Shown: positions 7,835-61,867 of the stretch, piece after piece
Position numbering within the stretch: the first letter of the stretch is position 1
How the letters are laid out: every line of letters begins with the position of its first letter
Source: a bacterium
Lineage (GTDB): Bacteria; SM23-31
Length of the DNA: 64,000 nucleotides
Direction of reading: 5' to 3'
Assembly (NCBI GenBank): GCA_965221205.1
Contig: OZ244870.1
Span: 1,118,782 to 1,182,781 of the forward strand
Notes under the pieces: model-generated
Databases searched by the model: none
What the model saw: the letters and a program-made list of their open reading frames with translations, nothing else
Told to the model about the DNA's origin: nothing
Translations under genes and position numbers: made by a program

Positions 7835-8032
7835 CAATATAGTTTTTCATAGTATAAGATTTATTAAATAAATTTTTCTTTATGTCATTTCGACCGGAGT
7901 CCCGATTTCAATCGGGCAAGAGTGGAGAAATCTCAACAATAATGCTGCTTATTTTCGTTAAAAAACCTCTACTAAAAATTTAAAAATACAAAATACTACT
8001 CAACTTACACGATTGACATTCGGAGGAAATGA

Positions 8033-9091: not shown

Positions 9092-9123
9092 ATCGTACTT
9101 TTAAAAGAGCAGGAGGTTCAAAA

Positions 9124-10107: not shown

Positions 10108-10453
10108 CTAGACACATCTTGTCCTGAATAATAACACAATCCCCATTCGGAATTTTAACTTGACTTCACTGTCTTAAATCCGTAAGTTCAACTTTATTTT
10201 TTTAATTCATGTATTACTTTTGCTCTCTTGAGTTTTCCTATTGAACCGCACATTATTATTGATTAATTAATATCGCAATGAAAAACATTTCGACCGAGGT
10301 TTCTGATTTTCTTAAGGAAAAATAGGGCATAAGCCATATTCCTTTTGCAAATAATCAGGATTATTTGTTAATGTAATCTCATTTTTATTAAAAATTATAT
10401 CAAACTTTTCCAGAGATTTAATAAGGAAAAAAGCAGAATAAATAGGGATCGCT

Positions 10454-13517: not shown

Positions 13518-13550
13518 ATAATGGCTAAATAATGGATATTGAATAGCTCA

Positions 13551-14162
13551 ATGAACCGATTCCAATTGAATTTCAAACGGAATGTTGGTCCAACTTCTGA
13601 AAATATACGAATGTGTGCTCCAGCGACTATTGAAGAATGGCGAGAATATTATTTTGAAAACGTTAGACCTAAAGAGCATATTGAAGATCTTGGCAGGAAA
13701 TTATATATTAAGATTACAGAAGTTATTTCAGCTGAAGTAGAAAAAATTACCGAACAGGATTGCATAAATTATATGATGCAATTAGTTATTGACCGGACAT
13801 TCGATGGTTATATGACAGAAATTAAAACAATTTATGGCCAGCTTCAAAAACTACTTGGTATAAAAATCGAACCTGCGCCTGACGAGTGGGATAGACTGTA
13901 CAACGTAGACTTCTGTATTAAAATTAATGAAAAGTTTGTCGGAATACAAATAAAACCAGTAAATCAAGGTATTCAGCTACCTCAGATATTTAAAGAAAAG
14001 GAGATTCAACGTAAATCTCATGAAAAGTTTAAAGATCGATTTGGCGGCAAGGTATTTTATGTCTTTTCTTCTAAAAAAGAAGACAAAAAAGAAATTATTA
14101 ATAAAGAAGTGGTTAGTGAGATATTACAAGAGATTGATCGATTAATATTAGATAACGATTAA
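13551..14162 (+). CDS. Candidate restriction endonuclease or other nuclease partner of the methyltransferase (unknown family)
   Basis: About 200 aa, starting 20-35 bp after the MTase stop on the same strand, with the same AT-rich composition. It has a possible PD-(D/E)xK-like arrangement VDFCIKINEKFVGIQIK. The assignment rests on gene context only. Confidence 0.35.
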   Translation: MNRFQLNFKRNVGPTSENIRMCAPATIEEWREYYFENVRPKEHIEDLGRKLYIKITEVISAEVEKITEQDCINYMMQLVIDRTFDGYMTEIKTIYGQLQKLLGIKIEPAPDEWDRLYNVDFCIKINEKFVGIQIKPVNQGIQLPQIFKEKEIQRKSHEKFKDRFGGKVFYVFSSKKEDKKEIINKEVVSEILQEIDRLILDND

Positions 14163-17672: not shown

Positions 17673-18872
17673 TCAGTCTTCCATCCGTTTTATTGATACT
17701 ACTTTCGGGAATATTGATCTTGTAATCCCCACCATCGGCACGGTAGTCAGCCAGACACGCTCTCCTTCAATAATTTTCATATCGATCTCATCAACCGATT
17801 GTACATCTTTCATTTCAGGTTTTATCTCGGTAATAATGCCGAAGAGTTCGGATTCCGGTGTAAAAACAGTACTGGTCATAAAACAGAGCGATTTTCCGGC
17901 ATGTTCATTCTCATCAGAAATGGTAAAAGCAATTTTAATTGCTTCACCGCCCGGTGCCTGAGACTCTGTAATAAATCGAACTGTTGCAGGATATCGGCCT
18001 TCCGGAGGGAAATAATTTTCTTCCTGCACTTTTACTTCTAATTGTATTTCCTCAATCAGAAATGTCTTTGCCCGATAGTTTCCGTCAGGAAGCACGGTCG
18101 GAATTGAGTACTGCGGATCGGTCAACAAGGCATACACAGTCGGATCGCCATCTCTCACTTTTTCTTTCGAGTTCAGCGGCCATTCGCTGCTGATTTGCTC
18201 AGCCCGTCCTGGGAGATTTTGTGCACTCAAAATCGATGTAATCGTCCAGTACATGTACTCGTCGATCTGACAGCCGTACCGGCATGATTCATCGTAGTAG
18301 TTATACCAGGAGCCATCGGGATACTGCTCGGGGGCATCCTTGAAATGTCCGCCTCTCGCTAAGTCCGCCGCCGCCGCCACTTTTGAGCCAGGTACGGGTG
18401 CAAATACCGATGGATATGCATTGCCCCATCCGTGACGCGTCAAGAGGTGGAGAGTCTCTTCCCATAAACCGTCGAACGTGTTGTTTTCGATAGCATTCGG
18501 ACGTGATTCATCAGCGAAATTATCGTGATAGACACCGTCGGGAAACGCGTAATGCAAGTCCTCATGGATCGCTTCCCATTCGTCTCCGGAATCCTTCGTC
18601 ATGACAAGTATAGCTTTTTTCTCGACCAGCGCATTCACAACACGCTGATCGTCAGGTATTCCGTCTTCATCATTGTCAAGATATTCTGCCAGAACATTCG
18701 CTGCATGCAGTAATTTTTCGTTGGGAGAGGTCGGAGTAGCATAGAGATGAATGCCAAATACATCCACCTGCTTCGTAAACACCGGGACTTCCAGTTGTTC
18801 TGTGCTAACTGTTGAGCAGCTAATCACCGCTAAATATGATAATCCTAACAGTGTGATCAATAATCTCTTCAT
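17673..18872 (-). CDS. Secreted lipoprotein of unknown function, tandem paralog 1, containing an HEDLH (HExxH-like) motif
   Basis: 399 aa. Signal peptide with lipobox-like LAVISCST. About 88% identical to the ORF at 19100-20299. Confidence 0.7.
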   Translation of the reverse strand: MKRLLITLLGLSYLAVISCSTVSTEQLEVPVFTKQVDVFGIHLYATPTSPNEKLLHAANVLAEYLDNDEDGIPDDQRVVNALVEKKAILVMTKDSGDEWEAIHEDLHYAFPDGVYHDNFADESRPNAIENNTFDGLWEETLHLLTRHGWGNAYPSVFAPVPGSKVAAAADLARGGHFKDAPEQYPDGSWYNYYDESCRYGCQIDEYMYWTITSILSAQNLPGRAEQISSEWPLNSKEKVRDGDPTVYALLTDPQYSIPTVLPDGNYRAKTFLIEEIQLEVKVQEENYFPPEGRYPATVRFITESQAPGGEAIKIAFTISDENEHAGKSLCFMTSTVFTPESELFGIITEIKPEMKDVQSVDEIDMKIIEGERVWLTTVPMVGITRSIFPKVVSIKRMED

Positions 18873-19099: not shown

Positions 19100-20299
19100 T
19101 TAGTCTTCCATCCGTACTATTGATACTACTTTCGGAAATACCGATCCTGTAATCCCCACCATCGGTTCGGTAGTCAGCCAGACACGCTCTCCTTCAATGA
19201 TAGTCATATCGATCTCGTCAACCGATTGCACATCTTTCATTTCAGGTATTATCTCGGTAATGATACTGAAGAGTTCGGATTCAAGTGTAAAAACAGTACT
19301 GGTCATAAAACAGAGCGATTTTCCTGCATGTTCATTTTCATCGGTAATGGTAAAAGCAATTTTAATCGCTTCACCGCCTGGTGCCTGAGACTCTGTAATA
19401 AATCGAACTGTTGCAGGATATCGGCCTTCCGGAGGAAAATAATTTTCTTCCTGCACTTTTACTTCTAATTGAATTTCCTCAATCAGAAATGTCTTTGCCC
19501 GATAGTTTCCGTCAGGAAGCACGGTCGGAATTGAGTACTGCGGATCGGTCAACAGGGTGTACACACTCGGATCGCCATCTCTCACCTTATCCTTTGTGTT
19601 CAGCGGCCATTCGGCGTTAATTCGCTCAGCCCGTCCAGGGAGATTTTGTGCACCCAAAATCGATGTAATCGTCCAGTACATATACTCGTCAATCTGACAG
19701 CCATACCGGCATGACGCATCGTAATAATTATACCATGAGCCATCAGGATACTGCTCAGGAGCATCTTTGAAGTGTCCGCCTCTCGCTAAGTCCACCGCCG
19801 CCGCCACTTTTGAGCCAGGTACGGGTGCAAATACCGTTGGATATGCATTGCCCCATCCATGACGCGTTAAAAGATGGAGGATTTCTTCCCATGAACCGTC
19901 GAACACGCCGTCTTCGATAGCATTCGGACTTGTTTGGTTAGCGTAGTTGTTGTGATAGACAGCGTCGGGAAATGCGTAATTTAAATCCTCATGGATCGCT
20001 TCCCATTCGTCGCCGGAATCCTTCGTCATGATGATAATAGCTTTTTTCTCGACCAGCGCATTCATAACATGCCGGTCATCGGGTACACCATCTTCATCAT
20101 TATCAAGATATTCTGCCAGAACATTTGCTGCGTGTAGCAATTTTTCGTCGGGAGAAGTCGGAGTAGCATAGAGATGAATGCCAAACACATCTACCAGTTT
20201 CGTTAACACCGGGACTTCCGGGTTTTCCGAGCTGACTGTGGTGCAGCTCATCAACACCAAACATGACAATCCTAACAGTGCGATCAATAATCTCTTCAT
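19100..20299 (-). CDS. Secreted lipoprotein of unknown function, tandem paralog 2, with HEDLN in place of HEDLH
   Basis: 399 aa. Lipobox-like LVLMSCTT. Flanking non-coding DNA is also duplicated. Confidence 0.7.
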   Translation of the reverse strand: MKRLLIALLGLSCLVLMSCTTVSSENPEVPVLTKLVDVFGIHLYATPTSPDEKLLHAANVLAEYLDNDEDGVPDDRHVMNALVEKKAIIIMTKDSGDEWEAIHEDLNYAFPDAVYHNNYANQTSPNAIEDGVFDGSWEEILHLLTRHGWGNAYPTVFAPVPGSKVAAAVDLARGGHFKDAPEQYPDGSWYNYYDASCRYGCQIDEYMYWTITSILGAQNLPGRAERINAEWPLNTKDKVRDGDPSVYTLLTDPQYSIPTVLPDGNYRAKTFLIEEIQLEVKVQEENYFPPEGRYPATVRFITESQAPGGEAIKIAFTITDENEHAGKSLCFMTSTVFTLESELFSIITEIIPEMKDVQSVDEIDMTIIEGERVWLTTEPMVGITGSVFPKVVSIVRMED

Positions 20300-20430: not shown

Positions 20431-21504
20431 TCACTCAAGAACCTTTGCCATATTCCAAAGTGACGAGTTGTGAAAATCGGCCACAAAGCTGCCGGGCGGG
20501 ACCAGTTCATCGCATGTAGTGCGGGCCTCATCACTGAGTGACATGTCTAATACCGGCAGAAGGTTCTCCAGATGTTTAATGGTCCTGCACCCTATGAGGG
20601 GAGCCGTAATTCCCGGCTGGTCTTTTACCCACAACAGCGCCAGTTGTGCGGCAGGAATTCCAACTCTGTCTGCAAGTTTCAAAAACTCTTTGCTGACTGC
20701 GATCCCTCTCTCGCTGATACGTTTTGTATAAAAGCCTCCCCGTTTGACCGCACGTGAATCTTTCGGAAAGTCGCTTGTGCTTTTATATCGACCAGCCAAT
20801 ATTCCCATTGCAAGAGGACTCCAGGTAATGAGTCCGACTCCATACTTTTGAGCAATCGGTATGAGTTCATTCTCGATGCGGCGGTCAAGTAAATTATACG
20901 GTGGCTGCTCTGTTGCAATGCGAACATAATCCTTCAATTCACTGAACATGATAGCTTCCATCACTACCCAGGCGGGATGCGTTGAAAAGCCGATATACCG
21001 AATCTTACCCTGCCGGACAAGATCAGTCAATGCATTGAGTGTTTCATCGATTGGTATATTCGGTGTAAACCGGTGGAGCTGGAATAGATCGATATAATCT
21101 GTCTGGAGACGCTTCAGGGCTTGTTCACAAACCCGGATAATATTTGAACGTGAATGACCGAATTCATTCGGGCCGATTTTGTCGAGAACCATATCCGGGC
21201 GTATATTGAATGTCGATTTATATTCATCGAGTGATACACCAATTCGCTTTCTTCCGTGGTCAACTTTCGTTGCAATAAAAACCCGGTGCCGCAATTTGTT
21301 TTCTTTGAGCGTTCTACCGATTATTCGCTCACTTTCGCCCTCACAATAGGTATCTCCTGTATCCAGTAAATTAATACCCGCGTCGAGTGCACAGTTAATA
21401 ATCTTGTTTGCTTCTTTTTCAGATGTGGCATCTCCGAAATTATCGCTTCCGAGTCCCATTGGAGAAACATTTATTCCTGTCCGTCCTAATTGTCTGTATT
21501 CCAT
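20431..21504 (-). CDS. Aldo/keto reductase family oxidoreductase
   Basis: 357 aa with AKR N-terminus MEYRQLGRTGINVSPMGLGSDNFG and motifs LLDTGDTY and IGFSTH. Confidence 0.85.
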   Translation of the reverse strand: MEYRQLGRTGINVSPMGLGSDNFGDATSEKEANKIINCALDAGINLLDTGDTYCEGESERIIGRTLKENKLRHRVFIATKVDHGRKRIGVSLDEYKSTFNIRPDMVLDKIGPNEFGHSRSNIIRVCEQALKRLQTDYIDLFQLHRFTPNIPIDETLNALTDLVRQGKIRYIGFSTHPAWVVMEAIMFSELKDYVRIATEQPPYNLLDRRIENELIPIAQKYGVGLITWSPLAMGILAGRYKSTSDFPKDSRAVKRGGFYTKRISERGIAVSKEFLKLADRVGIPAAQLALLWVKDQPGITAPLIGCRTIKHLENLLPVLDMSLSDEARTTCDELVPPGSFVADFHNSSLWNMAKVLE

Positions 21505-21592: not shown

Positions 21593-23128
21593 TTACCATG
21601 GCAATGGAGCAACACGAGGCAGTTTTTCATCCCGCATAGCTGCATGATATACGAATGTTGCAAGTATAACCGTATTTGCCATGAGGTCTTCGGGTACAAG
21701 ACGGTCAAATACGTCCATGTTGGAGTGGTACCTGCGACCGTCCATTCTATCCTGTAGAAAATAATACCCCGGAAGTCCTACCTCATCATATGCCTCATGT
21801 GCCATTCCCGTAGAAAAAAGATGTCTCATTCCCAGGTTGTAAAGCGGCTTCATCCATTCGGTAAAGATTGACCGGGTCATTTCATTACCCATAATGTTCA
21901 GACCTTTTATTCTGGCAGCGCCGTTATCGATGTTAAAATATGCCGATAGATTATGATAATCTGGTTTATATTCCTTTTTAGCAAGGTTGGCAAAATTATT
22001 TCGGACATGACTCCGGTTGCCGTATAAACCCATTTCATGTCCACCCCAGAGTCCAATTCGTAGTGTTCTCCGCGGTTTGATACCGAGTGCCTTGAAGATA
22101 CGAACTACTTCCATTGAAACAATAGTACCGGCGCCATCATCAGTTGCACCTGTCCCGACGGGCTCCGACTGAAGATGTCCGCCTACTACAACTAATTCAT
22201 CTGCCAGGTCTGTACCGGGAATCTCTGCGACAACATTATAATCATTCGGATCGTCTCTGGGGAAATCCACTTTAATATCAATTTCCAATTCCACTGGGAT
22301 CCCTTTTTCAAGAATACGTACAATCCTGTTGTAATGTTCCGCTGCCATAATAATCTCTCTGATGGGTGGCGGAGCATCCGTATTCCACATTTGATTTGTC
22401 ATAGCATATCCCCCTACCGCAGTATCGACTGTGCCGAAATCATTTTTCCCATCCGTTCGGGCAACCATATAGGCACCTGCTGCGAACAACATGTCGATTT
22501 TCTGCTCCTGCGAAAGCCCGGCATTACGGCGTCTGCGCTCGCGAACAACAGGAGGGCCGACGGGAGTTTTCGCCATTTCGTCCAATTCTTCTTCGGTATA
22601 TGGTTGTGTCATCGGCTCAAAGTGCGGTGTGATTACCTGTTTCGCCTGCATAAAAACAATTTTATCCCGAATAGTATTCCGGTATGTATCAAGGTCCGAT
22701 TCGGTGTTAATTTCATCAAGATTAATATGTATTGCCTCTGCCTCTATTTTTCCGTCTGTTCCGGCAGACCAAGCAGCAGGATACGCTATGATAGGCATAT
22801 ATTGGGGGGCAATCATGTGGATGGATGTGTATAAATTTTCCCAGCCTACACCAAATTCGAACGGTTCCAGCCGCACATTTGAGAGTCCATACTCTTCCAG
22901 TTTTTCTTTCGCCCATTGTGCAGCAGCATTATAACCGGATGATTTCGAGTTCCGGGGCCCATACACATCAGTTATCCAGCTGGCATTCTCCATCACTTCA
23001 GAGCGTTCAAATGCTTCGTCCATGATCTTATCGACGACATCCCAGTGGACCGGTTCCTGTGCAAAGACAGTTGAAGTTACAGCAACTGTTAAAAACAATG
23101 CTACCATGTATCTGTAATAATTACTCAT
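21593..23128 (-). CDS. Secreted M28-like (PA-domain-containing) metallopeptidase-fold protein, paralog 1 of 7
   Basis: Signal peptide ending AQEPVHWDVV. M28-like core GGHLQSEPVGTGATDDGAG ... WGGHEMGLYGN ... HSNMDVFDRL. Conserved C-terminal tail DEKLPRVAPLPW. Confidence 0.6.
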   Translation of the reverse strand: MSNYYRYMVALFLTVAVTSTVFAQEPVHWDVVDKIMDEAFERSEVMENASWITDVYGPRNSKSSGYNAAAQWAKEKLEEYGLSNVRLEPFEFGVGWENLYTSIHMIAPQYMPIIAYPAAWSAGTDGKIEAEAIHINLDEINTESDLDTYRNTIRDKIVFMQAKQVITPHFEPMTQPYTEEELDEMAKTPVGPPVVRERRRRNAGLSQEQKIDMLFAAGAYMVARTDGKNDFGTVDTAVGGYAMTNQMWNTDAPPPIREIIMAAEHYNRIVRILEKGIPVELEIDIKVDFPRDDPNDYNVVAEIPGTDLADELVVVGGHLQSEPVGTGATDDGAGTIVSMEVVRIFKALGIKPRRTLRIGLWGGHEMGLYGNRSHVRNNFANLAKKEYKPDYHNLSAYFNIDNGAARIKGLNIMGNEMTRSIFTEWMKPLYNLGMRHLFSTGMAHEAYDEVGLPGYYFLQDRMDGRRYHSNMDVFDRLVPEDLMANTVILATFVYHAAMRDEKLPRVAPLPW

Positions 23129-23160
23129 AATATTTCTCTCCTCTCAAGTTGAATATTTTC

Positions 23161-24807
23161 TTACCATAGTTTTTCAATTTCATCGGTGAGACCGGTCATC
23201 TCCCACCGCACTAACGACATGGGGATCATTCCCAAAGCCCTGAAATCATCGACAAATTCACCAAGAACAAAATCATCACCACGGACTTTTGCTGCATCTT
23301 CTATCAAACTCATCATCTGTATTTTCCCGAGAACCATTCCCATATGCCAACCGGGAGCACGAAGTGTCGTCTTCATCTCAAACCAGACTTCATGACCTCC
23401 ATCGATCATCCAGTTGTATGGTGTTTCTTCGTAGCAAAACTGGAGCGCATCGGCCAGGTCAAATTCATTGTTATGCATTTTCAGATCGGCCAGACCACGC
23501 ACAGCCCGGAAGGCTTTCGCGATTAAATTGACCTCCTCTCCACGTGGACGGTCTTCATAAATTCCGGAATGCAGAAAAATTTCTTCGAGTCCGAAAGCCA
23601 TACCCTCATTCCGAATCATATCGATATCATAGAGCCTGGTGGTTCCCCGTATCGGTCGTCCGTCACGCTGATGTATTAATTCATCCAGATGGTGACCAAG
23701 GTTATTATGTGCCACTTCGGCAATCATATCACGGTCTCTGCACTGTTGAAAAAAGTCCTGTTTGTCTTCCGATCCAGGTGCATTCCACCATTCTCCCGGA
23801 TTGTTCGTTGTCATATAGTCCGGTATGGTGAACAAACCTTCATCCTCGATGAATTGAAACATATACTGTTCATCATTTCGCCATCGCCGCTGGTACTCTT
23901 CAGGAGATGAAACTAACTGAAGGGGAGGCAGATTGCGGTTTCTGTGCTCAACAATTTTAAGCGCCCCGACTGAGTGTTCATATTCTCGCTCGAGGCTTGC
24001 GTACAGTTCATCCCAGGTATAGGGAACAAGATGCACATTTTTGAGCCACCAGTTATAGTTTTCTTTTCCGATTCCCGCTGGAGTGGTCATTGAATTAATG
24101 TTCGCTTCGATCCATTTACCGTAATCCTCCACTGCGGCAATTGCCAGTTCAATTTCTGAGAGCATTTCGGGATGGTGTTCCGTCAATTGTTTGCCGAGGT
24201 TTTCATACAGTTTTATTTCTCTTTCAAGAAAATGCAGAGCAATGAGAGCGAAATCCCCAGCTGCTTCGGTGAGATTCCCCTTTGCCTGTTCAAGCAGTTC
24301 AGGAGCAGCCCGAAGCTGTGCTCTGAAATTCGCAGCTTCTTCTTCAGACATTGGCAGTTCGGAAATTCTTGGTCTTCCATAAGCCGTCGGTCCGGCACCT
24401 CCCATAGAAAATAAGTAGAATACAGGATCCCGCGACCACGGCCTGCGTATTGTATGGTCGAATTCCAGACCGTTCATTTCTGCACGCACTACGTGGTAAT
24501 CCACTTGCTGCAAAACAGGCCAGTCACTTAAATTAATCGCCGCAAGTCGTTGCTGATATTCCTGTATTCTGCTGAACTGTTCCCTCAGTGCTGAAGCAGT
24601 GTAGTCGGGAACACTATTGATTTCTTTCGGTCTCTCAAATTCTCGAAATTCCTGAAAAAGTGCAATGAGATCATCATATGAATTCAATTCTGTCATGTCG
24701 GTTCTGCTACTCTCCGAAGTACACGACACGAAGAGGAGGATAAAAAGATACATGCAAACTCGTATTTTCAAATAATGTCTGTTCATAATATTCTCCAAAT
24801 ATTTCAT
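23161..24807 (-). CDS. Secreted hypothetical protein, possibly DUF885-like, embedded in the M28-like gene array
   Basis: 548 aa with N-terminal signal/lipoprotein sequence (LFILLFVSCTSES). Contains NLGHHLDELIH and GGHEVWFEMK segments. The DUF885 assignment is from memory of that family's conserved HH-containing motifs and is unverified. Confidence 0.35.
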   Translation of the reverse strand: MKYLENIMNRHYLKIRVCMYLFILLFVSCTSESSRTDMTELNSYDDLIALFQEFREFERPKEINSVPDYTASALREQFSRIQEYQQRLAAINLSDWPVLQQVDYHVVRAEMNGLEFDHTIRRPWSRDPVFYLFSMGGAGPTAYGRPRISELPMSEEEAANFRAQLRAAPELLEQAKGNLTEAAGDFALIALHFLEREIKLYENLGKQLTEHHPEMLSEIELAIAAVEDYGKWIEANINSMTTPAGIGKENYNWWLKNVHLVPYTWDELYASLEREYEHSVGALKIVEHRNRNLPPLQLVSSPEEYQRRWRNDEQYMFQFIEDEGLFTIPDYMTTNNPGEWWNAPGSEDKQDFFQQCRDRDMIAEVAHNNLGHHLDELIHQRDGRPIRGTTRLYDIDMIRNEGMAFGLEEIFLHSGIYEDRPRGEEVNLIAKAFRAVRGLADLKMHNNEFDLADALQFCYEETPYNWMIDGGHEVWFEMKTTLRAPGWHMGMVLGKIQMMSLIEDAAKVRGDDFVLGEFVDDFRALGMIPMSLVRWEMTGLTDEIEKLW

Positions 24808-24844
24808 CGATTACTTCACAGTTGAATAGTTTTATATGATTTCA

Positions 24845-26434
24845 CTACCACGGTAATTGAGCAACACGGGGAAGTTTTTCATCACGCATTGCAGCATGAT
24901 ACACAAACGTTGCAATAATGGCAACATTGGTCATCGTGTTTTCCGGAATAGCGCGATCTAACATGTCCATATTAGTGTGGGCATTCGTTTCCATATCATT
25001 TCTATCCTGATAAAAATAAAATCCCGGCAATCCGACTTCAGCGTACGCTTCATGGTAACCAGGATTACCGCCGATAGGCATTCCGCCGGGTATCAGATGT
25101 GACATACCCAGGCTGTGTAACGGCTTCATCCATTCGGTAAAAATTGACCGTATCTCTTCATTCCCCATGACCGATACAGCCCGTATCTTACCGGTTCCAT
25201 GATCTGAATCAAAGTACGCTGAAAGATTATGATAATCCCTTTTATATTCTTTAGTAGTCGGATCCGCAAAGTTTTTGCGGACATGACTCCGGTTACCTGC
25301 TAATCCAGCGCCATCATGTCCACCCCAGAGTCCCATCCGAACGGTTCGCCGTGGTTTAAGCCCTAATTTTTTAAAAATCCGTGCAACTTCCATAGCAGAA
25401 GCTGCACCGACTGCGTTATCAGTCGCACCGGTACCGACAGGCACAGACTGAAGGTGACCACCAAATACAACTATTTCATGCGGTAGATCAGTGCCGGGAA
25501 TCTCGGCAATAACGTTATGGTCATTCGGATTACCCCTGAAAAAGTTTGTCCGGACTTCGATCTCCATTTCGACAGGAATTTCCTTATTCAATATTCGAAT
25601 GATCCGGTTATATTGTTCCACTGCCAAGACAAGCTCTGTAGGCTGTGGAAGTGCACCCTCTTTCCACAGTCCTGATGCTCTATCATATCTACTGAGCGCA
25701 ACTGTTCCGAAATCATGTTGGCCGTCCGGGTGTGCAATAGCAACGGCACCCTCAGCAAATACAAAATCGATGATTTGTTGGCGCGTCAGTCTGTTTTCAC
25801 TAAGATTGGGTCTCGTCCGCCCTTGTCTTTGTAATTCAATATCCAACACAGATATTTCCGGAGCAATGGGTATTTTCGCCATTGCATCGAGTTGCTCTTT
25901 TGTAAATATTGTTGCTATTGGTTCAAAATGGGGTGAGAGTTTGTGTTCCGGTCTTATAAATATGATTGTGTTCTTTAATTTTCCTCGGTATTGTTTCAAA
26001 TCTGTTCCAGAAACAAGTTCGTCAAAGTTGATATACATGGCATTGGCCCGGATTTTTCCATCTGTTCCGGACGACCACGGAGCAGGATAGGCAATAAGCG
26101 GCATATACTGGGGAGCCATCATGTGTACTGAGGTGTAACCAATATTCCAACCGGCACCGAATTCGTACGGCTCAAGTCTGGCATTCGTGAGACCATTCTC
26201 TTTGAGTCTGTCTCGAGCCCATTCCGCAGCCGCACGGTATGAAGGTGTCTTCACATTTCGAGGTCCGTATACATCAGCCAGCCAGCTGGCATTGTCCATA
26301 ACTTGAGAATTATTAAAAGCTTCTTCCATTATTTTATCTACGACATCCCAATAGACCGGTTCCTGTGCGAAAGCTGATAACGTTAAGAGAACAATTAACA
26401 ACATTACGACGATATTGTGATAAAGAGTGCACAT
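24845..26434 (-). CDS. Secreted M28-like PA-domain protein, paralog 2 (variant with WGGHDGAG)
   Basis: Signal peptide ending AQEPVYWDVV. GGHLQSVPVGTGATDNAVGA ... WGGHDGAGLAGN. Tail DEKLPRVAQLPW. Confidence 0.6.
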   Translation of the reverse strand: MCTLYHNIVVMLLIVLLTLSAFAQEPVYWDVVDKIMEEAFNNSQVMDNASWLADVYGPRNVKTPSYRAAAEWARDRLKENGLTNARLEPYEFGAGWNIGYTSVHMMAPQYMPLIAYPAPWSSGTDGKIRANAMYINFDELVSGTDLKQYRGKLKNTIIFIRPEHKLSPHFEPIATIFTKEQLDAMAKIPIAPEISVLDIELQRQGRTRPNLSENRLTRQQIIDFVFAEGAVAIAHPDGQHDFGTVALSRYDRASGLWKEGALPQPTELVLAVEQYNRIIRILNKEIPVEMEIEVRTNFFRGNPNDHNVIAEIPGTDLPHEIVVFGGHLQSVPVGTGATDNAVGAASAMEVARIFKKLGLKPRRTVRMGLWGGHDGAGLAGNRSHVRKNFADPTTKEYKRDYHNLSAYFDSDHGTGKIRAVSVMGNEEIRSIFTEWMKPLHSLGMSHLIPGGMPIGGNPGYHEAYAEVGLPGFYFYQDRNDMETNAHTNMDMLDRAIPENTMTNVAIIATFVYHAAMRDEKLPRVAQLPW

Positions 26435-26467
26435 TGTATTCCTTATATTGTATGTTGAAGAGTTACT

Positions 26468-28018
26468 TTACCATGGCAGCGGTGCAACTCTGGGAAGTTT
26501 CTCATCACGCATAGCAGTATGATACACAAACGATGTCAGGACAACTGAAGCTTGCATCAAGCCTTCCGGAACAAGCCTCTCATAGGTATCCATATTACTG
26601 TGTGAATTCATGTCGTCGATCTCTTTTCGGTCATGGTCAAAATAAAAGCCCAGCAGACCGACTTCCCTGTATGCTTCATGTTGGCTTCCTGACGTAAACA
26701 GATGTGTCATACCCAAGTTTTTCAGCGGCTTCATCCACTCGGTAAATATTGATCTGAGAAGTTCATTTCCCATAATGGAAACACCCCGTATCCTGCCGGT
26801 TCCAATATCGATATTGTAATATGCAGAGAGGTTATCATAATCCTTTTTGTATTTTTTCGTTACCGGATCAGCAAAGTTTTCCCGGACATGAGCACGGTTC
26901 CCGATCGTACCCATTTCATGACCTCCCCAGAATCCTACTCGGATCGTTCGTCTTGGTTTGACTCCGATCGCCATAAGAGTTCGTGCTGCTTCAAGTGTAG
27001 CCACGACACCCGCACCATTATCAATAGCACCCGTACCAGCAGGATTCGCCTGCAAGTGCCCCCCAAAAAGAACTATTTCATTCGCCAGGTCAGTACCGGG
27101 AATTTCTGCTATGACATTGAAATCGTTTGGACCATCACTGTTAAAAGAGACTCGCACTTCAAGTTCTATTTCAACAGGAATACCTTTTTCCAAAATTCGC
27201 ATTATCCTGTTGTAGTGTTCAGCAATCATGATCAATTCTGTTGGATTCGGTTGCGCCCCCTGTTCCCATGGCCGTGTTTCCATCGTATATCGTCTATTCT
27301 CAACTCTGACAGATCCATAACTGCTTTGTCCGTCTGTACGAACAATTGCCACTGCACCTTCACCAAACACAAAGTCGATAATCTGCTGTCTCGATAGCCT
27401 ATCATCTTCCGACCTTCGACCGCGGTGCACTTGTGTGACACGGGGTCCAACAGAAATTTTCGACATTTCATCAAGCTGTTCATCGGATAATCTCTCATTA
27501 AGCGGAGTAAATCTGTGTGTGATCTCCTGTTTCGGCGTGGTGAATATGATAGCGTTGTGCAGATTACCCCGATACTGTTCCAGATCAGATTCTGAAGCAA
27601 TCTCATCGAAATTTACATAGACGATCGGGCCACGAACTTTTCCATTAGTACCCTCGGACCACAATGCGGGATATGCGACGATCTGCATGTACCGAGGGGA
27701 CATCATGTGAACAGAAGTGTAGTTGTTATCCCAGCCAATACCAAATTCATACGGTTCCAAATGTGCGTTTGGAACACCATAATCATCCAATTTTTCTTTT
27801 ACCCATTCAGCTGCAGCAAAATAACTTGGCGTTTTTGCGCCCCGCGGTCCAAAGACGTCGGTCAGCCAGCTGGCATTTTCCATGACTTCGTTATTTGCAA
27901 ACGATTCATCCATAATCTTCTGCACAACATCGTAGTATACTTTTTCCTGTGCATTGGTGGAGACTGCTGCAATAAGCAGTATAATTAATCCAGCTACACA
28001 TATACATTGAGCTTTCAT
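26468..28018 (-). CDS. Secreted M28-like PA-domain protein, paralog 3
   Basis: Signal peptide ending NAQEKVYYDVV. GGHLQANPAGTGAIDNGAG ... WGGHEMGTIGN. Tail DEKLPRVAPLPW. Confidence 0.6.
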   Translation of the reverse strand: MKAQCICVAGLIILLIAAVSTNAQEKVYYDVVQKIMDESFANNEVMENASWLTDVFGPRGAKTPSYFAAAEWVKEKLDDYGVPNAHLEPYEFGIGWDNNYTSVHMMSPRYMQIVAYPALWSEGTNGKVRGPIVYVNFDEIASESDLEQYRGNLHNAIIFTTPKQEITHRFTPLNERLSDEQLDEMSKISVGPRVTQVHRGRRSEDDRLSRQQIIDFVFGEGAVAIVRTDGQSSYGSVRVENRRYTMETRPWEQGAQPNPTELIMIAEHYNRIMRILEKGIPVEIELEVRVSFNSDGPNDFNVIAEIPGTDLANEIVLFGGHLQANPAGTGAIDNGAGVVATLEAARTLMAIGVKPRRTIRVGFWGGHEMGTIGNRAHVRENFADPVTKKYKKDYDNLSAYYNIDIGTGRIRGVSIMGNELLRSIFTEWMKPLKNLGMTHLFTSGSQHEAYREVGLLGFYFDHDRKEIDDMNSHSNMDTYERLVPEGLMQASVVLTSFVYHTAMRDEKLPRVAPLPW

Positions 28019-28060
28019 AGTACTATTTACACCTCCTGCTATAAAATCAAATGAAATTCC

Positions 28061-29623
28061 TTATCGTACCGGCATTGGTGCAATGCGGGGAAGTTTTTCA
28101 TCACGCATTGCGGCATGGTATGCTAAACTTGCCATGACAACTGCGGACTGCATCATGTCCTCCGGTATAAGGCGGTCATATACATCCATGTTGGTATGAG
28201 CGTTTCTGTTATCTAAATTAAATAATTCCTGCAGAAAGGAAAACCCTGGCAGACCGACTGCCGAAAACCTGCGATCTTCAGAGCCTACTACTTCCGGTAT
28301 GAGATGGGTCATCCCGAGACGATGCAGCGGTTTCAACCATTCGGTGAAGATAGAACGCACCTGTTCATTTCCCTGAAGAAAAATTCCGCGAAACCTACCG
28401 GTACCATGGTCGGTGTTAAAATAAACGGATAATTGAGAGTGCTCCGGTTTATATATCTGTGTTTCCGGATCACCGAAGTGGGCGAGTACATAATTCCGCG
28501 AACCGAAATTGCCCATCTCATGCGCACCCCAGAGCCCAATGCGAATAGTCCGCCGGGGTTCCACTCCGATTGCTTTGAGAATTCGTAATGCTTCCATACA
28601 AACGGCAACACCGGCGACATCATCTATTGCACCGGTACCGGCCGGATCAGCCTGAAGATGTGCTCCGAACATTGCCACCTCATTAGCAAGGTCTGTTCCC
28701 GGAAGCTCAGCAACGACATTGTAATCAGTGAAATCGTCATCGATAAAATTCACCCGTATTTCAACTTCCATTTCAACGGGAATTCCTTTTTTCATTATTC
28801 TGAGTATCCGGTTATAATGCTCAGCTAGTACAACCAGCTCTGTAATAGGAGGAAGAGGATTCTTTTCCCATAAACGATTTTCCAGAGCATATCCTTCGAC
28901 ACCCGCATCGACAACACCATATCCATTCGTTTGACCATCATGATGTGCAATTGCTAAAGCTCCCTCTGCAAACACAAAAGCGATTTTCTCATTGTTTGTC
29001 AGTCTGTTTTCGTCATCTATGCGTCCTCGCCGTGCACCGGAATCGCCGGGGCCGATGTGGATTTTTGCCATTTCATCAAGCTGTTCCTCTGTAAATCTAT
29101 CTGCTATGTGATCAAAATGGGGTGAGACACTCAGTTCCGGTGTAGTAAATACAATTTTGTTTATTAGTTTTCCACGGTATGGTTCAAGATCGGCTTTGGT
29201 ATTGATCTCATCAAAGTTGACAAAAATTACCGGTTCCCTGATTTTTCCATCTGTTCCGGCAGACCATGGAGCCGGATACGCTATCATCGGCATATACTGA
29301 GGTGACATCATATGCACCGACGCATACTCTTTCTCCCAGCCTATACCGAACTCAAACGGTTCAAGAGCAACATTCGATAAGCCGAACTCCTCTAATCGAT
29401 CTTTAGTCCAATCTGCGGCTGCACGATATGATGATGAATTTGCGTTCCGCGGCCCAAAAACATCGGTCAACCAGCTTGCAGTTTCCATAACACGCGAATT
29501 TTCGAAACCTTCAATTATGATCTTATCGACAGCATTCCAGTACACTTTTTCTTGAGCAAATGCGGAATGTGCAGTGAGAAGAAGCAACAATAAACCTGTA
29601 CTTACAGTGCGTTGTAACTTCAT
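28061..29623 (-). CDS. Secreted M28-like PA-domain protein, paralog 4; start trimmed to MKLQRTVSTG to remove an ORF-caller overlap
   Basis: Signal peptide ending AFAQEKVYWNAV. GAHLQADPAGTGAIDDVAG ... WGAHEMGNFGS. Divergent tail DEKLPRIAPMPVR. Confidence 0.55.
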   Translation of the reverse strand: MKLQRTVSTGLLLLLLTAHSAFAQEKVYWNAVDKIIIEGFENSRVMETASWLTDVFGPRNANSSSYRAAADWTKDRLEEFGLSNVALEPFEFGIGWEKEYASVHMMSPQYMPMIAYPAPWSAGTDGKIREPVIFVNFDEINTKADLEPYRGKLINKIVFTTPELSVSPHFDHIADRFTEEQLDEMAKIHIGPGDSGARRGRIDDENRLTNNEKIAFVFAEGALAIAHHDGQTNGYGVVDAGVEGYALENRLWEKNPLPPITELVVLAEHYNRILRIMKKGIPVEMEVEIRVNFIDDDFTDYNVVAELPGTDLANEVAMFGAHLQADPAGTGAIDDVAGVAVCMEALRILKAIGVEPRRTIRIGLWGAHEMGNFGSRNYVLAHFGDPETQIYKPEHSQLSVYFNTDHGTGRFRGIFLQGNEQVRSIFTEWLKPLHRLGMTHLIPEVVGSEDRRFSAVGLPGFSFLQELFNLDNRNAHTNMDVYDRLIPEDMMQSAVVMASLAYHAAMRDEKLPRIAPMPVR

Positions 29624-29657
29624 TAGTACGCCCCTATAAATTATTTGATATAATATG

Positions 29658-31205
29658 TTACCAGGGTCTTGGTGCGAACCGGGGAAGTCTTTCATCACGC
29701 ATGGCGGCGTGATATGCGAACGTCGCAATTATGACAGCGTTTGCTATGAGATCTTCCTCTACAAGACGGTCATAGGCATCCATATTGGAATGGTATTGGC
29801 GGCTATCCATTCTGTCCTGTATAAAATAGTAACTCGGCAGGCCAACTGCATCATATGCTTCATGGACCATTCCATACGGGATAAGATGAGTCATGCCGAG
29901 ATTATGGAGCGGCTTCATCCATTCTGTGAATATGGCACGAAGTCGTTCATTACCCTGAATAGGAACACCACGTATCCTGCCGCTGCCATGGTCGATATTA
30001 AAATATGCGGAAAGGTTATCGTAATCTTTTTTGTATTCCTTTGTTTCCGGATCGGCAAAGTGTTTTCGAACATGAGCCCGGTTTCCGAATACACCCATTT
30101 CATGCCCGCCAAAGATAGCTATCCGTATAGTCCGGCGGGGTTGGATTCCGAGAGCCTTAAGAATACGTACAGCTTCCATGCAGACAACGACACCCGCAGC
30201 ATCATCGGCAGCGCCGCCTCCAGCTGGGTTTGCCTGAAGATGCCCGCCCAAGAGAACAATTTCTTCTGCAAGGTCGGTACCCGGAATTTCGGCAACTACA
30301 TTGTAATCTGTCAGGTCATCCCGGTTAAATGAGACTTTTAGCTCAAGTTCAATCTCGACTGGAATATCTTTCTCCAGAATACGCATGATCCGATTATACT
30401 GTTCAGTTGACATAACCAGTTCGGTAGGAGGGGAGGGAGCGTCCACTTCCCACAATCTGTTATCTAGAGTATAACGGTTGTTCTCTACAGCAACAGTCCC
30501 GAAATCATTTCTACCGTCCATCCGCACAATAGCTGCCGCGCCTTCGCCAAATACAAAATCGAGAATTTTCTGCCGTGAAAGCCTTTCCGGACGGGAACGC
30601 CTGTTTCGCTCATCTGTAATCCGGGGACCGATAGGAATTTTCGCCATCTCATCGAGCTGTTCTTTGGTATAGCGTGTTGCGGGTGGATCAAAGTGAGGTG
30701 TTAATGTTCGTTTAGGTTCTGTTAAGACGACTGCATTGCGAAGTTTTCCACGGTATAGCCGGAGGTCTACTTCCGATGCTATATCTCCAAAATTAATGTA
30801 AACTGCCCGCCCTTTGACCTTGCCGTTGGTTCCGGCAGACCACGTCGCGGGATAAGCAATAATTGGCATGTACTGAGGAGACATCATATGGACCGAAATA
30901 TATTCATTCACATAGCCAACCCCGAACTCATACGGTTCCAACTCAGCATTCGATAACCCATATTCCTGTAACCGCTCTTTCACCCATTCAGCCGATGCAA
31001 TGTATCCAGGTGATTTTGCATTCCTCGGTGCAAATACATCCACAATCCAACTTGCATTCTCCATGACGTCGGAGTTTTTGAAAGCTTCATCCATGATCTT
31101 GTCGACAACATCCCAGTGGACAGGTTCCTGTGCATGAACAGAAAACACTGACGTAAACAGCAACATTAATACTAATACTCCAGCGCAAATACATTTTGAC
31201 TTCAT
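29658..31205 (-). CDS. Secreted M28-like PA-domain protein, paralog 5; likely start at MKSKCICAG
   Basis: Signal peptide ending VHAQEPVHWDVV. GGHLQANPAGGGAADDAAG ... FGGHEMGVFGN. Tail DERLPRFAPRPW. Confidence 0.6.
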   Translation of the reverse strand: MKSKCICAGVLVLMLLFTSVFSVHAQEPVHWDVVDKIMDEAFKNSDVMENASWIVDVFAPRNAKSPGYIASAEWVKERLQEYGLSNAELEPYEFGVGYVNEYISVHMMSPQYMPIIAYPATWSAGTNGKVKGRAVYINFGDIASEVDLRLYRGKLRNAVVLTEPKRTLTPHFDPPATRYTKEQLDEMAKIPIGPRITDERNRRSRPERLSRQKILDFVFGEGAAAIVRMDGRNDFGTVAVENNRYTLDNRLWEVDAPSPPTELVMSTEQYNRIMRILEKDIPVEIELELKVSFNRDDLTDYNVVAEIPGTDLAEEIVLLGGHLQANPAGGGAADDAAGVVVCMEAVRILKALGIQPRRTIRIAIFGGHEMGVFGNRAHVRKHFADPETKEYKKDYDNLSAYFNIDHGSGRIRGVPIQGNERLRAIFTEWMKPLHNLGMTHLIPYGMVHEAYDAVGLPSYYFIQDRMDSRQYHSNMDAYDRLVEEDLIANAVIIATFAYHAAMRDERLPRFAPRPW

Positions 31206-31589
31206 AGAAAAACCCTCCTGAAACAATGTACATATTTAAATTATTTCGGACACCACATCTTTAATAGTACCTAATAGTACCTTTTGAATATTGATTTTAC
31301 AAGTGTTTTTTCTTCCTCTCCATGCAGATTCGATAAATATAAGAATTCATAGCCGTGAGGTTGATTGAAAAACCTCAAAGATGAATAACCGGGGTTCTAT
31401 ATTTTACTTCATTATCATTTTATACAGATTGTTATTCTCACTAAAATTTTGTATATTACTACCGTAGTTTTTGAAAGGTTGTTCACAAGCAGTCAAAGAC
31501 GAATCCTGGAGTAGGATACTGTTCGCCGGAACATGTTCCTGATCCGGGTTTTTGTATTTTGTCTACACTGTTTATTGGAAGTTGTGATG

Positions 31590-39084: not shown

Positions 39085-40674
39085 TTACCACGGCAAAGGA
39101 GCGACACGGGGGAGTTTTTCATCACGCATTGCCGCATGATAGACAAACGATGCAAGGATGACCACATTTGTCATCGTGTTTTTAGGAACAAGACGGTCAA
39201 ACATATCCATATTAGTGTGGGCATTCGTTTCCATATCTAATCTGTCCTGATAAAAATAAAAACCCGGCAGTCCAACTTCAGCATACGCATCATGGTAGCC
39301 CATATTGCCACCGATAGACATTCCGCCAGGAATCAGATGTGCCATTCCCAAGCTATGTAACGGTTTCATCCACTCGGTAAAAATTGACCGAATCTCTTCA
39401 TTACCCATGACAGATACAGCCCGTATCTTACCGGTACCATGATCCACATTAAAGTATGCAGATAGATTATGATAATCCTTTCTGTATTCCTTTGTCGTCG
39501 GATCGGCAAAGTTTTTCCGGACATGACTCCGGTTACCCGCTAATTCTGCTCCATCATGACCACCCCAGAAGCCAACACGAATGGACCGTCGGGGTTGAAG
39601 GCCTAATTTTTTGAAGATACGCGCAACTTCCATTGCAGTAGCTACACCGGCTGCATTATCAGTTGCGCCGGTACCCACAGGTACAGATTGAAGATGACCG
39701 CCGAATACAACTATTTCATGGGCCAAATCAGTACCAGGGATCTCGGCAACAACATTATGGTCGTTTGGATCACCTCTGAAAAAGTTTGTTCTGATTTCGA
39801 TCTCCATTTCGACAGGAATGCCCTTATTTAGTATCCGAATGATCCGGTTATATTGTTCCACTGCCAAGACAAGTTCCGTGGGCTGGGGCGGCGCATCCTC
39901 TTTCCACAGTCCCGATGCTCTATCGTATCTACTGACTGCAACGGTTCCGAAATCATGTCGGCCGTCCGGGTGTGCAATTGCAACAGCACCTTCGGCAAAT
40001 ACAAAATCGATAATTTGCTGGCTCGTAAGTCTGCTTTCACCGGGATTGGGCCTTGTACGCTCCTGTCGGCGCAAATACAGATACAGAACTGAGACTTTGG
40101 GAGTTATGGGGATTTTCGCCATCTCGTCAAGCTGCTTTTCCTTGAATTTCGTCGCTATTGGTTCAAAACGGGGTGAGAGTTTCTGTTCTGGCCTTATGAA
40201 AATGATAGCATTTCGTAATTTCCCCTGGTATTGTTTCAGATTTGCTTCTGTAGCAAGTTCGTCAAAATTCATATAAATAGCATGTGCCCGGATCTTTCCA
40301 CTTGTTCCGAACGACCATGGTGCAGGATAGGCAATAACCGGCATATATTGGGGGGCTATCATGTGTACTGAGGTGTATCCAATATTCCAACCGACACCGA
40401 ATTCATATGGTTCAAGTCTGGCATTTGTGAGGCCATACTCCTTGAGCTGGTCTCTCGCCCATTCTGCAGCTGCACGATACGATGGTGTCTTTACATTTCG
40501 CGGTCCAAATACATCGGCCAGCCAACTGACATTCTCAATGACCTGAGAATTTTCAAACGCCTCTTCCATTATCCTCTCAACAACATCCCAGTAGATCGGT
40601 TCCTGCGCCGGTGCAGAAGATACAAACGCAAGCAATATCAATAAACCTATCAAACAAATATATTTAGCTTTCAT
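39085..40674 (-). CDS. Secreted M28-like PA-domain protein, paralog 6 (HD variant, closest to paralog 2)
   Basis: Signal peptide ending APAQEPIYWDVV. GGHLQSVPVGTGATDNAAG ... WGGHDGAELAGN. Tail DEKLPRVAPLPW. Confidence 0.6.
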   Translation of the reverse strand: MKAKYICLIGLLILLAFVSSAPAQEPIYWDVVERIMEEAFENSQVIENVSWLADVFGPRNVKTPSYRAAAEWARDQLKEYGLTNARLEPYEFGVGWNIGYTSVHMIAPQYMPVIAYPAPWSFGTSGKIRAHAIYMNFDELATEANLKQYQGKLRNAIIFIRPEQKLSPRFEPIATKFKEKQLDEMAKIPITPKVSVLYLYLRRQERTRPNPGESRLTSQQIIDFVFAEGAVAIAHPDGRHDFGTVAVSRYDRASGLWKEDAPPQPTELVLAVEQYNRIIRILNKGIPVEMEIEIRTNFFRGDPNDHNVVAEIPGTDLAHEIVVFGGHLQSVPVGTGATDNAAGVATAMEVARIFKKLGLQPRRSIRVGFWGGHDGAELAGNRSHVRKNFADPTTKEYRKDYHNLSAYFNVDHGTGKIRAVSVMGNEEIRSIFTEWMKPLHSLGMAHLIPGGMSIGGNMGYHDAYAEVGLPGFYFYQDRLDMETNAHTNMDMFDRLVPKNTMTNVVILASFVYHAAMRDEKLPRVAPLPW

Positions 40675-44581: not shown

Positions 44582-44665
44582 TTTTTTCTCCTTGGATTTA
44601 TCAGGTTGTTACGTGTGTAGTTTGTGTTTAGTTTAATGTTTGGCTCTTAATTATCTTTGGAGTAT

Positions 44666-49981: not shown

Positions 49982-50035
49982 ACTTAGAGCAAACAGCAAT
50001 GAAGGAAACTCAAATATGTTTATTCGAAATGTTTT

Positions 50036-60319: not shown

Positions 60320-61867
60320 ATGAAAACTCCATATAATTTTATAGCAAGTCTATATTTGTTGCTTATAATAGTATGTTCTGTATCTGCACAAGAGCCGGTC
60401 TACTGGGATATTGTGAATAAAATCATGGATGAAGCATTCGAACATTCCCAGATAATGGAGAACGCCAGCTGGCTCACTGACGTATTTGGCCCCCGGCATG
60501 TGAAAACGCCTGCATATTTTGAAGCCGCAGAATGGGCAAAAAATAAATTAGAAGAATATGGTCTCGCAAATGCACGTCTGGAGCCGTACGAGTTTGGGAT
60601 TGGTTGGGAGAATAAATATACTTCTGTCCACATGATGGCTCCCCAGTATATGCCGATCATCGCCTATCCTGCACCGTGGTCTGCCGGCACGGATGGAAAA
60701 GTACGGGGGCAGGTTGTTTACATTAATTTTGATGACATCACCTCTGAATTGGATTTGGAACAATACCGCGGAAAATTACAAAATTCTATTATTTTCACAA
60801 GACCGATACAGAAGTTGTCGCCACATTATGAATCATTAGCAACGAAATTTACGGATGATCAGCTTGATGAGATGGCGAAGATTCCCATTGGCCCCCGGGC
60901 CGCTGAAGAGCGGCGTGCACAAAGACTCGGTAAAAAGAGACTTTCCCGAAAGCAGATCATTGAATTTGTATTAAACGAAGGTGCACGGGCAATTGTCCGC
61001 ACTGATGGGAGAAGAGACTTCGGCACCGTCGAAGCCGGAGTTGTTGGCTTTACTTTAGAAACCAGTCCGTGGGAGGAAAACTCCCCGCCTAATCCAACGG
61101 AGTTGGTCATTGCAGCAGAACAATATAACAGGATACTGCGCATACTGGAAAAGAGCATTCCCGTTGAGATGGAAGTTGAGCTCAGGGTAAATTTTGTCAG
61201 AGGGAATTCAAACGATTACAATGTTGTCGCTGAGATACCCGGCACAGACCTGGCAGAAGAAATTGTAATATTGGGTGGGCATCTTCAAGCAGATCATGCC
61301 GGAACCGGCGCTACGGATAACGCCGCCGGTGTGGTGGTTTCCATGGAAACAATGCGCATTTTCAAAAAAATGAGTATCAAACCCCGTCGAACCATCCGCA
61401 TAGGACTCTGGGGAGGACACGAAATGGGTACATTTGGTAATCGGAGTCATGTCCGTAACAACTTTGCCGACTTGAAAAAAAAGGAATACAAGAAGGATTA
61501 TAAGAATCTTTCCGCATATTTCAATGTCGATCATGGTAGTGGTAAGATACGAGGTGTATCCGTCATGGAAAACGAAGTGATCAGGTCAATATTTACCGAA
61601 TGGATGAAACCCCTGAAAAACCTGGGAATGACGCATCTTTTCAATACCGGAATGGCTCATGAAGCATATGCTGAGGTTGGCCTGCCGGGGTATTATTTTC
61701 TGCAGGACAGGATGGATATGGAAATGAATGTTCATTCGAATATGGATGTCTATGACCGTCTTGTTCCCGAAAATCTGATGGCGAATGTGGTCATTCTTGC
61801 AACTTTTGTGTATCATGCTGCTATGCGCGATGAAAAACTCCCCCGAATTGCGCCGTTACCCTGGTAG
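60320..61867 (+). CDS. Secreted M28-like PA-domain protein, paralog 7, the only copy on the + strand; the true start is MKTPYNF, not the ORF-caller start at 60167
   Basis: Signal peptide ending VSAQEPVYWDIV. GGHLQADHAGTGATDNAAG ... WGGHEMGTFGN ... HSNMDVYDRL. Tail DEKLPRIAPLPW. Confidence 0.6.
   Translation: MKTPYNFIASLYLLLIIVCSVSAQEPVYWDIVNKIMDEAFEHSQIMENASWLTDVFGPRHVKTPAYFEAAEWAKNKLEEYGLANARLEPYEFGIGWENKYTSVHMMAPQYMPIIAYPAPWSAGTDGKVRGQVVYINFDDITSELDLEQYRGKLQNSIIFTRPIQKLSPHYESLATKFTDDQLDEMAKIPIGPRAAEERRAQRLGKKRLSRKQIIEFVLNEGARAIVRTDGRRDFGTVEAGVVGFTLETSPWEENSPPNPTELVIAAEQYNRILRILEKSIPVEMEVELRVNFVRGNSNDYNVVAEIPGTDLAEEIVILGGHLQADHAGTGATDNAAGVVVSMETMRIFKKMSIKPRRTIRIGLWGGHEMGTFGNRSHVRNNFADLKKKEYKKDYKNLSAYFNVDHGSGKIRGVSVMENEVIRSIFTEWMKPLKNLGMTHLFNTGMAHEAYAEVGLPGYYFLQDRMDMEMNVHSNMDVYDRLVPENLMANVVILATFVYHAAMRDEKLPRIAPLPW

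Follow-up and report, generated by a model that had tools for sequence, protein, structure and literature searches.

Why would a bacterium keep a whole set of apparently secreted peptidases in which the catalytic glutamate of their family has been replaced in every copy? This question is raised by a 64,000-nucleotide stretch of the bacterial contig OZ244870.1 (positions 1,118,782 to 1,182,781 of the forward strand; assembly GCA_965221205.1, GTDB lineage SM23-31), hereafter the window, which contains seven paralogous genes of the M28 peptidase family, five of them in a tandem array together with a gene for a DUF885-family lipoprotein. We consider it probable that these genes encode a battery of secreted, PA-domain-bearing, two-metal M28 exopeptidases for peptide scavenging, in which a histidine would act as general acid/base, and that they were kept after old duplications. 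What seems to be new is the natural His-type active site; the array itself is routine as a genomic feature. The paralogs are referred to as A to G, and all residue numbers are those of paralog G.

Open reading frame (ORF) tables combined with a profile search across all ORFs of 150 amino acids (aa) or more identified exactly seven family members within the window, all of them full-length, and tblastn detected no extra family fragments in the window. The count of seven given in a first-pass annotation, which was made from the sequence alone, is therefore borne out. The hmmsearch scores of the seven all exceeded 900 bits, which excludes a chance match.

The Pfam profile Peptidase_M28 (PF04389, clan MH) matched all seven proteins over residues ~300-495 with E-values of 1e-18 to 1e-21; these matches score 67-77 bits against a cut-off of 21.3 and cover profile positions 1 to ~190 of 193. 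The proteins have the alpha/beta aminopeptidase fold of clan MH, and the M28-like core proposed at first pass is thus confirmed, with no placement outside M28. By contrast, NCBIfam yielded no specific family but only sub-threshold partial matches to M20/allantoate amidohydrolase-type models and to LapA. When a profile of the seven was searched against the PDB, the best match was 3iib, a Shewanella 'Peptidase M28 precursor' (E 3e-31), followed by PaAP, SGAP, 2ek8, AAP, BSAP, GCPII and the transferrin receptor (TfR). An AlphaFold2 model of paralog G, built on 58 sequences, had a predicted local distance difference test (pLDDT) score of 88.9, and Foldseek with this model likewise returned 3iib first (E 3e-31) and then only PA-bearing M28 proteins. 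A PSMA/TfR-type M28B structure had been named at first pass as one possible template for superposition; 3iib is nearer, and in the model of G the last core helix ends at residue 502 of 515, with no C-terminal helical dimerisation domain of the M28B (GCPII/TfR) type. By their match to 3iib in fold and sequence, the proteins are probably closest to the PGCP/carboxypeptidase Q (CPQ)-like group of M28, in which 3iib is placed by CDD. The name 'carboxypeptidase Q' carried by many homologs is an automated Joint Genome Institute (JGI) name, and a literature search found nothing specific on bacterial carboxypeptidase Q. The family is not an orphan: the wider family comprises thousands of relatives, and its representatives number 16125 at E<=1e-3 and still 1111 at E<=1e-30.

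All seven proteins can be aligned over their full length, with a mean column identity of 72%. Pairwise identity is 54-66%, rising to 82-84% for the B/F pair; paralog D is the most divergent copy (54-58% identical to the others) and forms the earliest branch of the seven in a neighbour-joining (NJ) tree. The N-terminus of each copy is basic and hydrophobic and ends in a common motif, as the first-pass annotation had noted, although the motif is slightly looser than the AQE(P/K)V(Y/H)WD given there, namely AQE(P/K)(V/I)(Y/H)(W/Y)(D/N). These N-termini resemble Sec-type signal peptides and suggest that the proteins are secreted. A C-terminal tail common to all seven, also noted then, is seen in the alignment as ...AMRDEKLPRxAPLPW.

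Between the N-terminal part and the core of the M28 domain lies an insert (residues 106-294) that had been described as PA-domain-sized. The Pfam PA model PF02225 matched neither the full proteins at E<=0.01 nor the excised inserts at E<=10, and the PA assignment thus rests on predicted structure. Modelled alone (pLDDT 78.5), the insert matched the PA domains of ZNRF3 (score 10.2), VSR1 (9.3), RNF43 (9.2) and RNF128 (8.8) as well as the TfR apical domain (8.8), GCPII (8.6), PaAP (8.5) and the subtilase SBT3 (7.6). The insert is therefore predicted to be a PA fold inside the M28 domain, and this part of the earlier claim stands by structure prediction though not by the Pfam profile. The architecture runs from the signal peptide through the N-terminal part of M28 and the PA domain to the M28 core. 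Relative to 3iib, the PA insert of the G model has an extra segment (residues 160-210; window positions ~60797-60949) with a low-confidence, basic and Arg-rich loop of ERRRR type at residues 194-205, which is longer in B and F. Moreover, paralog B has an extra loop in the PA domain and another near residues 441-452.

M28 enzymes are the textbook case of two-zinc hydrolysis with a glutamate as general base. Aligned to 3iib, the metal ligands of the window proteins are His321, Asp333, Glu368, Asp404 and His472. Paralogs A, C, D, E and G all have exactly these residues; in B and F, ligand position 368 is Asp ('GGHD') and the other four ligands are unchanged. In this alignment, all five co-catalytic metal-ligand positions are kept in the seven copies. 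By contrast, the general-base Glu, i.e. the first E of AAEELG in 3iib, is His367 in all seven, which accordingly lack the 'EE' of M28, and the Asp of HxD is Gln323 in all seven, giving HLQ(S/A) where canonical relatives have HLDS. The non-canonical active-site motifs reported at first pass are thus real: HLQ replaces HxD, and HE or HD replaces EE. In paralog E, for example, the motifs read GGHLQA / GGGAADD / GGHE / NIDHG / YHSNMD.

Active-site positions were tabulated over 270 homologs, comprising the 120 nearest and 150 wider full-length family representatives. His occupies the general-base position in every one of the 120 nearest homologs (56-94% identical to G), all of which keep the five ligand positions; 110 of them have Gln at the HxD position as well. 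In the wider family, the canonical H-D / D / EE / D / H pattern is shown by ~120 of the 150 cluster representatives, and one canonical-pattern protein, P0121, shares 50-55% identity with the window proteins. The His/Gln clade is monophyletic in 100 of 100 NJ bootstraps and lies inside the canonical 'EE' family as sister to canonical proteins. Several residues are fixed in this clade and rare outside it (H439, R464, E261, D229, D299 and W515); the terminal W515 and the ...LPRxAPLPW tail occur in 95% of the His-type clade and are rare or absent elsewhere. Named M28 homologs from Aminicenantes, Hydrogenedentes and other groups are ~59-63% identical, and the His-type clade is thus spread across several candidate phyla.

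A second, distant clade (P0137, P0145, P0164, P0175, P0181, P0239 and P0268) combines 'HE' with a canonical HxD and was always separated from the first by at least nine canonical taxa in the NJ bootstraps. This separate placement shows that the Glu-to-His change happened at least twice; in the second clade it arose independently and without the Asp-to-Gln change. Moreover, the structure of the Aeromonas aminopeptidase E151H variant (2anp) scores above that of the wild type against the family profile, and the title of Bzymek et al. 2005 (pmid 16142900, a reference in PMC3426542) describes this engineered enzyme as functional. By analogy, His367 would be the general acid/base of the window proteins, with altered kinetics or pH dependence. 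In the limited library searched, no natural, fixed and recurrent His-for-Glu general base combined with Gln-for-Asp was found in M28.

The same site might belong to active metallohydrolases for another substrate class or chemistry, such as D-amino-acid or modified N-termini, N-acyl amino acids, poly-amino acids or a cyclase-type reaction. The coupled Glu-to-His and Asp-to-Gln changes, with H439, R464, E261 and W515 fixed, do suggest a re-tuned pocket, the M28-fold relatives include glutaminyl cyclases and a poly(aspartic acid) hydrolase (7d18, 8vpm, 7ljh), and the D-aminopeptidase DppA has His at the equivalent position. However, glutaminyl cyclases are mononuclear, having lost one metal site, whereas both metal sites are intact in the window proteins; moreover, the gene neighbourhood consists mostly of ordinary peptidases (M24, S15, Tricorn-like) and no neighbouring gene points to a different substrate. 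We therefore regard a different chemistry as unlikely.

Since no copy retains either the general-base Glu or the Asp of HxD, the proteins could also be catalytically dead pseudo-peptidases whose M28/PA scaffold is kept for binding of peptides or other ligands in a receptor or chaperone-like role, as in the transferrin receptor. TfR is indeed among the fold matches, and PA domains are often protein-interaction modules, as the matches to ZNRF3, RNF43 and VSR1 illustrate. Unlike in TfR, however, the five metal-ligand positions are kept in the seven copies and in the 120 nearest homologs; the replacing residue is always His and arose twice, which points to a selected catalytic alternative; the ratios of nonsynonymous to synonymous substitution (dN/dS) are about 0.1; and the genes sit among peptidase and amino-acid transporter genes. 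Loss of catalysis in all copies is accordingly quite improbable, and we favour secreted two-metal exopeptidases with a histidine general acid/base.

The age of the copies was read from related genomes in a family scan with one genome per species, which found 25 loci. In the closed metagenome-assembled genome (MAG) OZ252239 (3.78 Mb), locus L002 contains five tandem 1:1 orthologs in the same order, E-D-C-B-A: E at 3486-5054 (93% identity, dN/dS 0.097), D at 5082-6650 (91%, 0.100), C at 6562-8241 (90%, 0.095), B at 8263-9864 (89%, 0.131) and A at 9974-11533 (92%, 0.101). The orthologs of F (locus L011, 91% identity) and G (P0001/L006, 94%) are found elsewhere in this genome, so that all seven window copies have 1:1 orthologs at 89-94% identity, with dN/dS values of 0.095-0.143 across the seven. 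The duplications therefore predate the split of the genomes and every copy is under purifying selection. This agrees with the earlier proposal of an old expansion that has been kept and is not a recent duplication. Between B and F, dS is 0.84 and dN/dS 0.125; F is a younger duplicate of B.

In OZ251221, a closed MAG of 4.05 Mb that is more distantly related, A, C, D, E, F/B and G have orthologs with 74-87% identity, and the gene order is partly rearranged (D-E-C in L009). The loci retrieved from OZ252239 and OZ251221 contain at least 12 full-length copies per genome, with additional fragments in OZ251221. Broken or partial copies lie in OZ251221 at L010 7914-10489 and L023 9935-11201 as well as in L024 and L026; their presence beside at least 12 intact copies shows that the family also undergoes gene death. 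The arrangement of three M28 genes, DUF885, a further M28 gene, an aldo/keto reductase gene and a gene for a 399-aa protein is found again in a closed contig of 3.42 Mb and in a Logan run. We conclude that the array reflects an ordinary lineage-specific expansion within a very large family. Although tandem paralogs can be mis-assembled, and other parts of the window contain transposase genes and fragments of pseudogenes, there is practically no chance that the copies reflect recent amplification or collapsed or expanded repeats, a possibility also raised at first pass and refuted by the low identity between copies, by the fact that each copy has a separate ortholog, in unchanged order, in a closed MAG assembled independently, by the recurrence of the same arrangement with an identical DUF885 protein in further, independent assemblies, and by the dS already reached between B and F.

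Within the window, the five paralogs and the DUF885 lipoprotein gene lie head-to-tail on the minus strand in the order E-D-C-B-DUF885-A. The first gene of the row is E (29658..31205, 515 aa; PF04389 E 2e-19), followed by D (28061..29623, 520 aa; E 2.3e-19), C (26468..28018, 516 aa; E 6.4e-19), the GGHD-type B (24845..26434, 529 aa; E 2.2e-18), the DUF885 gene between B and A (23161..24807, 548 aa; PF05960 E 7e-22) and A as the last M28 gene (21593..23128, 511 aa; PF04389 E 1.7e-21). The spacers measure 32-42 bp, in line with the 30-45 bp given before, and each contains a Shine-Dalgarno-like motif. The span of 21593-31226 assigned to the array at first pass is right at its 21593 end; position 31226 is the TTG of an ORF extension, and the likely start of E is ATG 31205, which has AGGAGG 8 nt upstream. 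Similarly, TTG 29728 is an extension of D, which likely starts at ATG 29623. The coordinates of the two dispersed paralogs were confirmed: F (529 aa, GGHD type; E 1.8e-19) lies at 39085..40674 on the minus strand, and G (515 aa; E 1.7e-18), which was used for structure prediction, at 60320..61867 on the opposite, plus strand.

Upstream of the row there is a single long non-coding stretch (31206..31532 on the minus strand, 327 bp), which separates E from a divergent DUF5698 gene and is presumed to be the promoter region of the E-D-C-B-DUF885-A unit. Promoter and terminator scans showed no enrichment relative to shuffled sequences, and the terminator scan found no terminator-like site in any spacer inside the row. 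The spacing suggests that the unit is an operon. A co-directional aldo/keto reductase gene (20431..21504, minus strand; PF00248 E 5e-72) lies 88 bp downstream of A, and it is uncertain whether it is on the same transcript as the array. This gene is syntenic in all related arrays: in L002, the array is followed by a 357-aa ORF of equal length, and in the arrays of L033 and L034 an Aldo_ket_red-matching gene likewise lies behind.

Just downstream of the array, the minus strand carries two tandem genes for 399-aa lipoproteins (17673-18872 and 19100-20299; lipoboxes VISC and LMSC). They are ~90% identical to each other by eye and have no Pfam match; a homolog with ~50% identity adjoins the ortholog of G in L001 (12571-13389).

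The DUF885 protein scores 79 bits against PF05960 (cut-off 32.4) and matches PDB 3o0y (E 1e-10). Its called start in public assemblies is ATG 24786. The protein has the lipobox FVSC and, read from this start, is identical to proteins of the closed 3.42-Mb contig and the Logan assembly. DUF885 has been assigned to the zinc-peptidase MA clan (PMC12572635), and a search of the literature found nothing specific on its function. The window protein has HNNLGHH where four M28-linked homologs have HE(F/M)(I/V)GH, i.e. the putative catalytic Glu is Asn here and the His-Glu pair of the putative zinc motif is absent. In the OZ252239 array the DUF885 gene is missing, and the B and A orthologs are separated by a 110-bp spacer. 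Homologs with 40-47% identity adjoin family members in L003, L004, L012 and L015, and DUF885 is also found beside the family in three unrelated contigs. We conclude that DUF885 is a recurrent neighbour and not an accident.

Other neighbours that recur in unrelated contigs, besides DUF885, are M24, S15 (X-Pro dipeptidyl peptidase), Tricorn/PD40, BNR/sortilin, SSF, PALP and GMC genes; the ortholog of G has similar neighbours. Such a recurring 'peptidase island' speaks for a role in the breakdown of peptides. The window itself also encodes SNF and SSF Na+ symporters, a DctP-type binding protein, an M24 peptidase and an S9-like hydrolase, and the Na+:solute symporter gene at 37000-38751, which has an SSF Pfam match, adjoins paralog F. 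Moreover, in anoxic sediments M28 ranks among the commonest annotations of extracellular peptidases (PMC6752024).

Several further features of the window were noted. An ilv/leu biosynthesis cluster is present, and the ketol-acid reductoisomerase at 1692-2690 (plus strand) is 100% identical to a protein of a 3.83-Mb contig, 78-80% identical to the next relatives and ~70% identical to proteins of KSB1, Calditrichaeota, Balneolales and Marinimicrobia. The host is therefore probably an FCB-group-like bacterium, and the Aminicenantes/Acidobacteriota origin to which the names of M28 homologs had pointed was rejected. A restriction-modification pair at 12231-14162 (plus strand), consisting of an N6/N4 DNA methylase fused to an SNase-like domain and an MjaI-type endonuclease, has a GC content of 0.30 against ~0.45 and was probably acquired horizontally. 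The regions 41000-48000 and 50000-51700 contain only short broken ORFs, e.g. a 192-aa SDR fragment at 44003-44581, and tblastn detected frameshifted fragments of BNR/sortilin-Vps10 type at 51700-53250 (plus strand); these broken stretches around 41-53 kb are probably pseudogenes or long-read indel errors. Directly upstream of paralog G lie an IS1595-type transposase gene (57452-58174, minus strand) and an IS3-type (rve) transposase gene (58543-59385, plus strand), and the gene order around G differs from that around its OZ252239 ortholog (L001).

In total, these observations are consistent with the following scheme. Old tandem and dispersed duplications generated the copies, which purifying selection has kept. 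The five array copies and the DUF885 lipoprotein (Peptidase_MA clan) would probably be co-transcribed, and the M28 proteins would be exported by the Sec pathway, with the signal peptide removed behind the Ala that precedes QE. Once exported, the enzymes would clip terminal residues off peptides, either in the periplasm or extracellularly, and the freed amino acids and short peptides could then be taken up by the Na+-coupled symporters encoded nearby. The paralogs would probably differ in the terminal residue that they accept: paralog-specific, orthogroup-conserved residues lie beside the ligands, at D404+1 (405) and H472-2 (470), and hint at differing pockets.

A number of points weigh against this scheme. 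The canonical general base is missing, so that enzymes of the His form might hydrolyse peptides poorly or not at all; the engineered E151H aminopeptidase is reportedly slower by about three orders of magnitude, with kcat down ~2000-fold. The catalytic competence of the His-type clade is presumed from sequence comparison, as is an orientation of His367 towards the metal site; another acid might stand in for the Glu. Only seven sites in all fit the pattern expected for sub-functionalisation, and the evidence fits the aminopeptidase and the carboxypeptidase direction alike. Secretion and co-transcription are both read from features of the DNA and protein sequences. Finally, without the Glu of the HE...H motif the DUF885 protein of the window may not be catalytic, and its absence from the array of the closest relative indicates that it is dispensable there.

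The genes described here are a concrete, assayable set for the question of how uncultured heterotrophs harvest detrital peptides. To our knowledge, the histidine version of the M28 site has been studied only as an engineered mutant. A natural His form that is fixed, under purifying selection, recurrent and duplicated offers a system for studying how general base and second shell evolve together in a binuclear site, and the canonical sister proteins, at ~50-55% identity, make the comparison straightforward. More tentatively, the clade might represent a mechanistically distinct natural co-catalytic M28 site that arose at least twice in a CPQ-like family, expanded to at least 12 copies per genome in uncultured bacteria and differs from canonical M28 enzymes in pH optimum, metal preference or substrate class. 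In an equally speculative vein, such a site would combine a His general acid/base with a neutral second-shell residue on one metal ligand. On this reading, the clade would be an important and hitherto overlooked class of extracellular exopeptidases in the environment.

The first-pass annotation had found no obvious characterised member of the family, and this is still the case: the best solved relative, 3iib from Shewanella amazonensis, is an unpublished structural-genomics entry without a published function and is 23% identical. In contrast to the canonical HLDS and AAEELG motifs of 3iib, the window proteins have the altered motifs described above; moreover, they are ~70 residues longer, with an extra PA segment of ~40 residues and the conserved C-terminal ...PLPW tail. 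The PA-bearing enzymes of Aneurinibacillus AM-1 (2ek8), Bacillus subtilis (BSAP/YwaD, 6hc6) and Pseudomonas aeruginosa (PaAP, 8ac7) are 15-18% identical and have the canonical EE; PaAP has an autoinhibitory C-terminal propeptide. GCPII and the transferrin receptor (M28B) resemble the window proteins in having the PA (apical) insertion at the same position of the M28 core. The leucyl aminopeptidase AAP of Aeromonas (Vibrio) proteolytica (1rtq/1amp) has no PA domain, and its wild-type form has Glu151 and, in HxD, Asp99. In its E151H variant (2anp) the His is an artificial mutation, whereas in the window proteins it occurs naturally, is fixed across a large clade and goes together with the Asp-to-Gln change.

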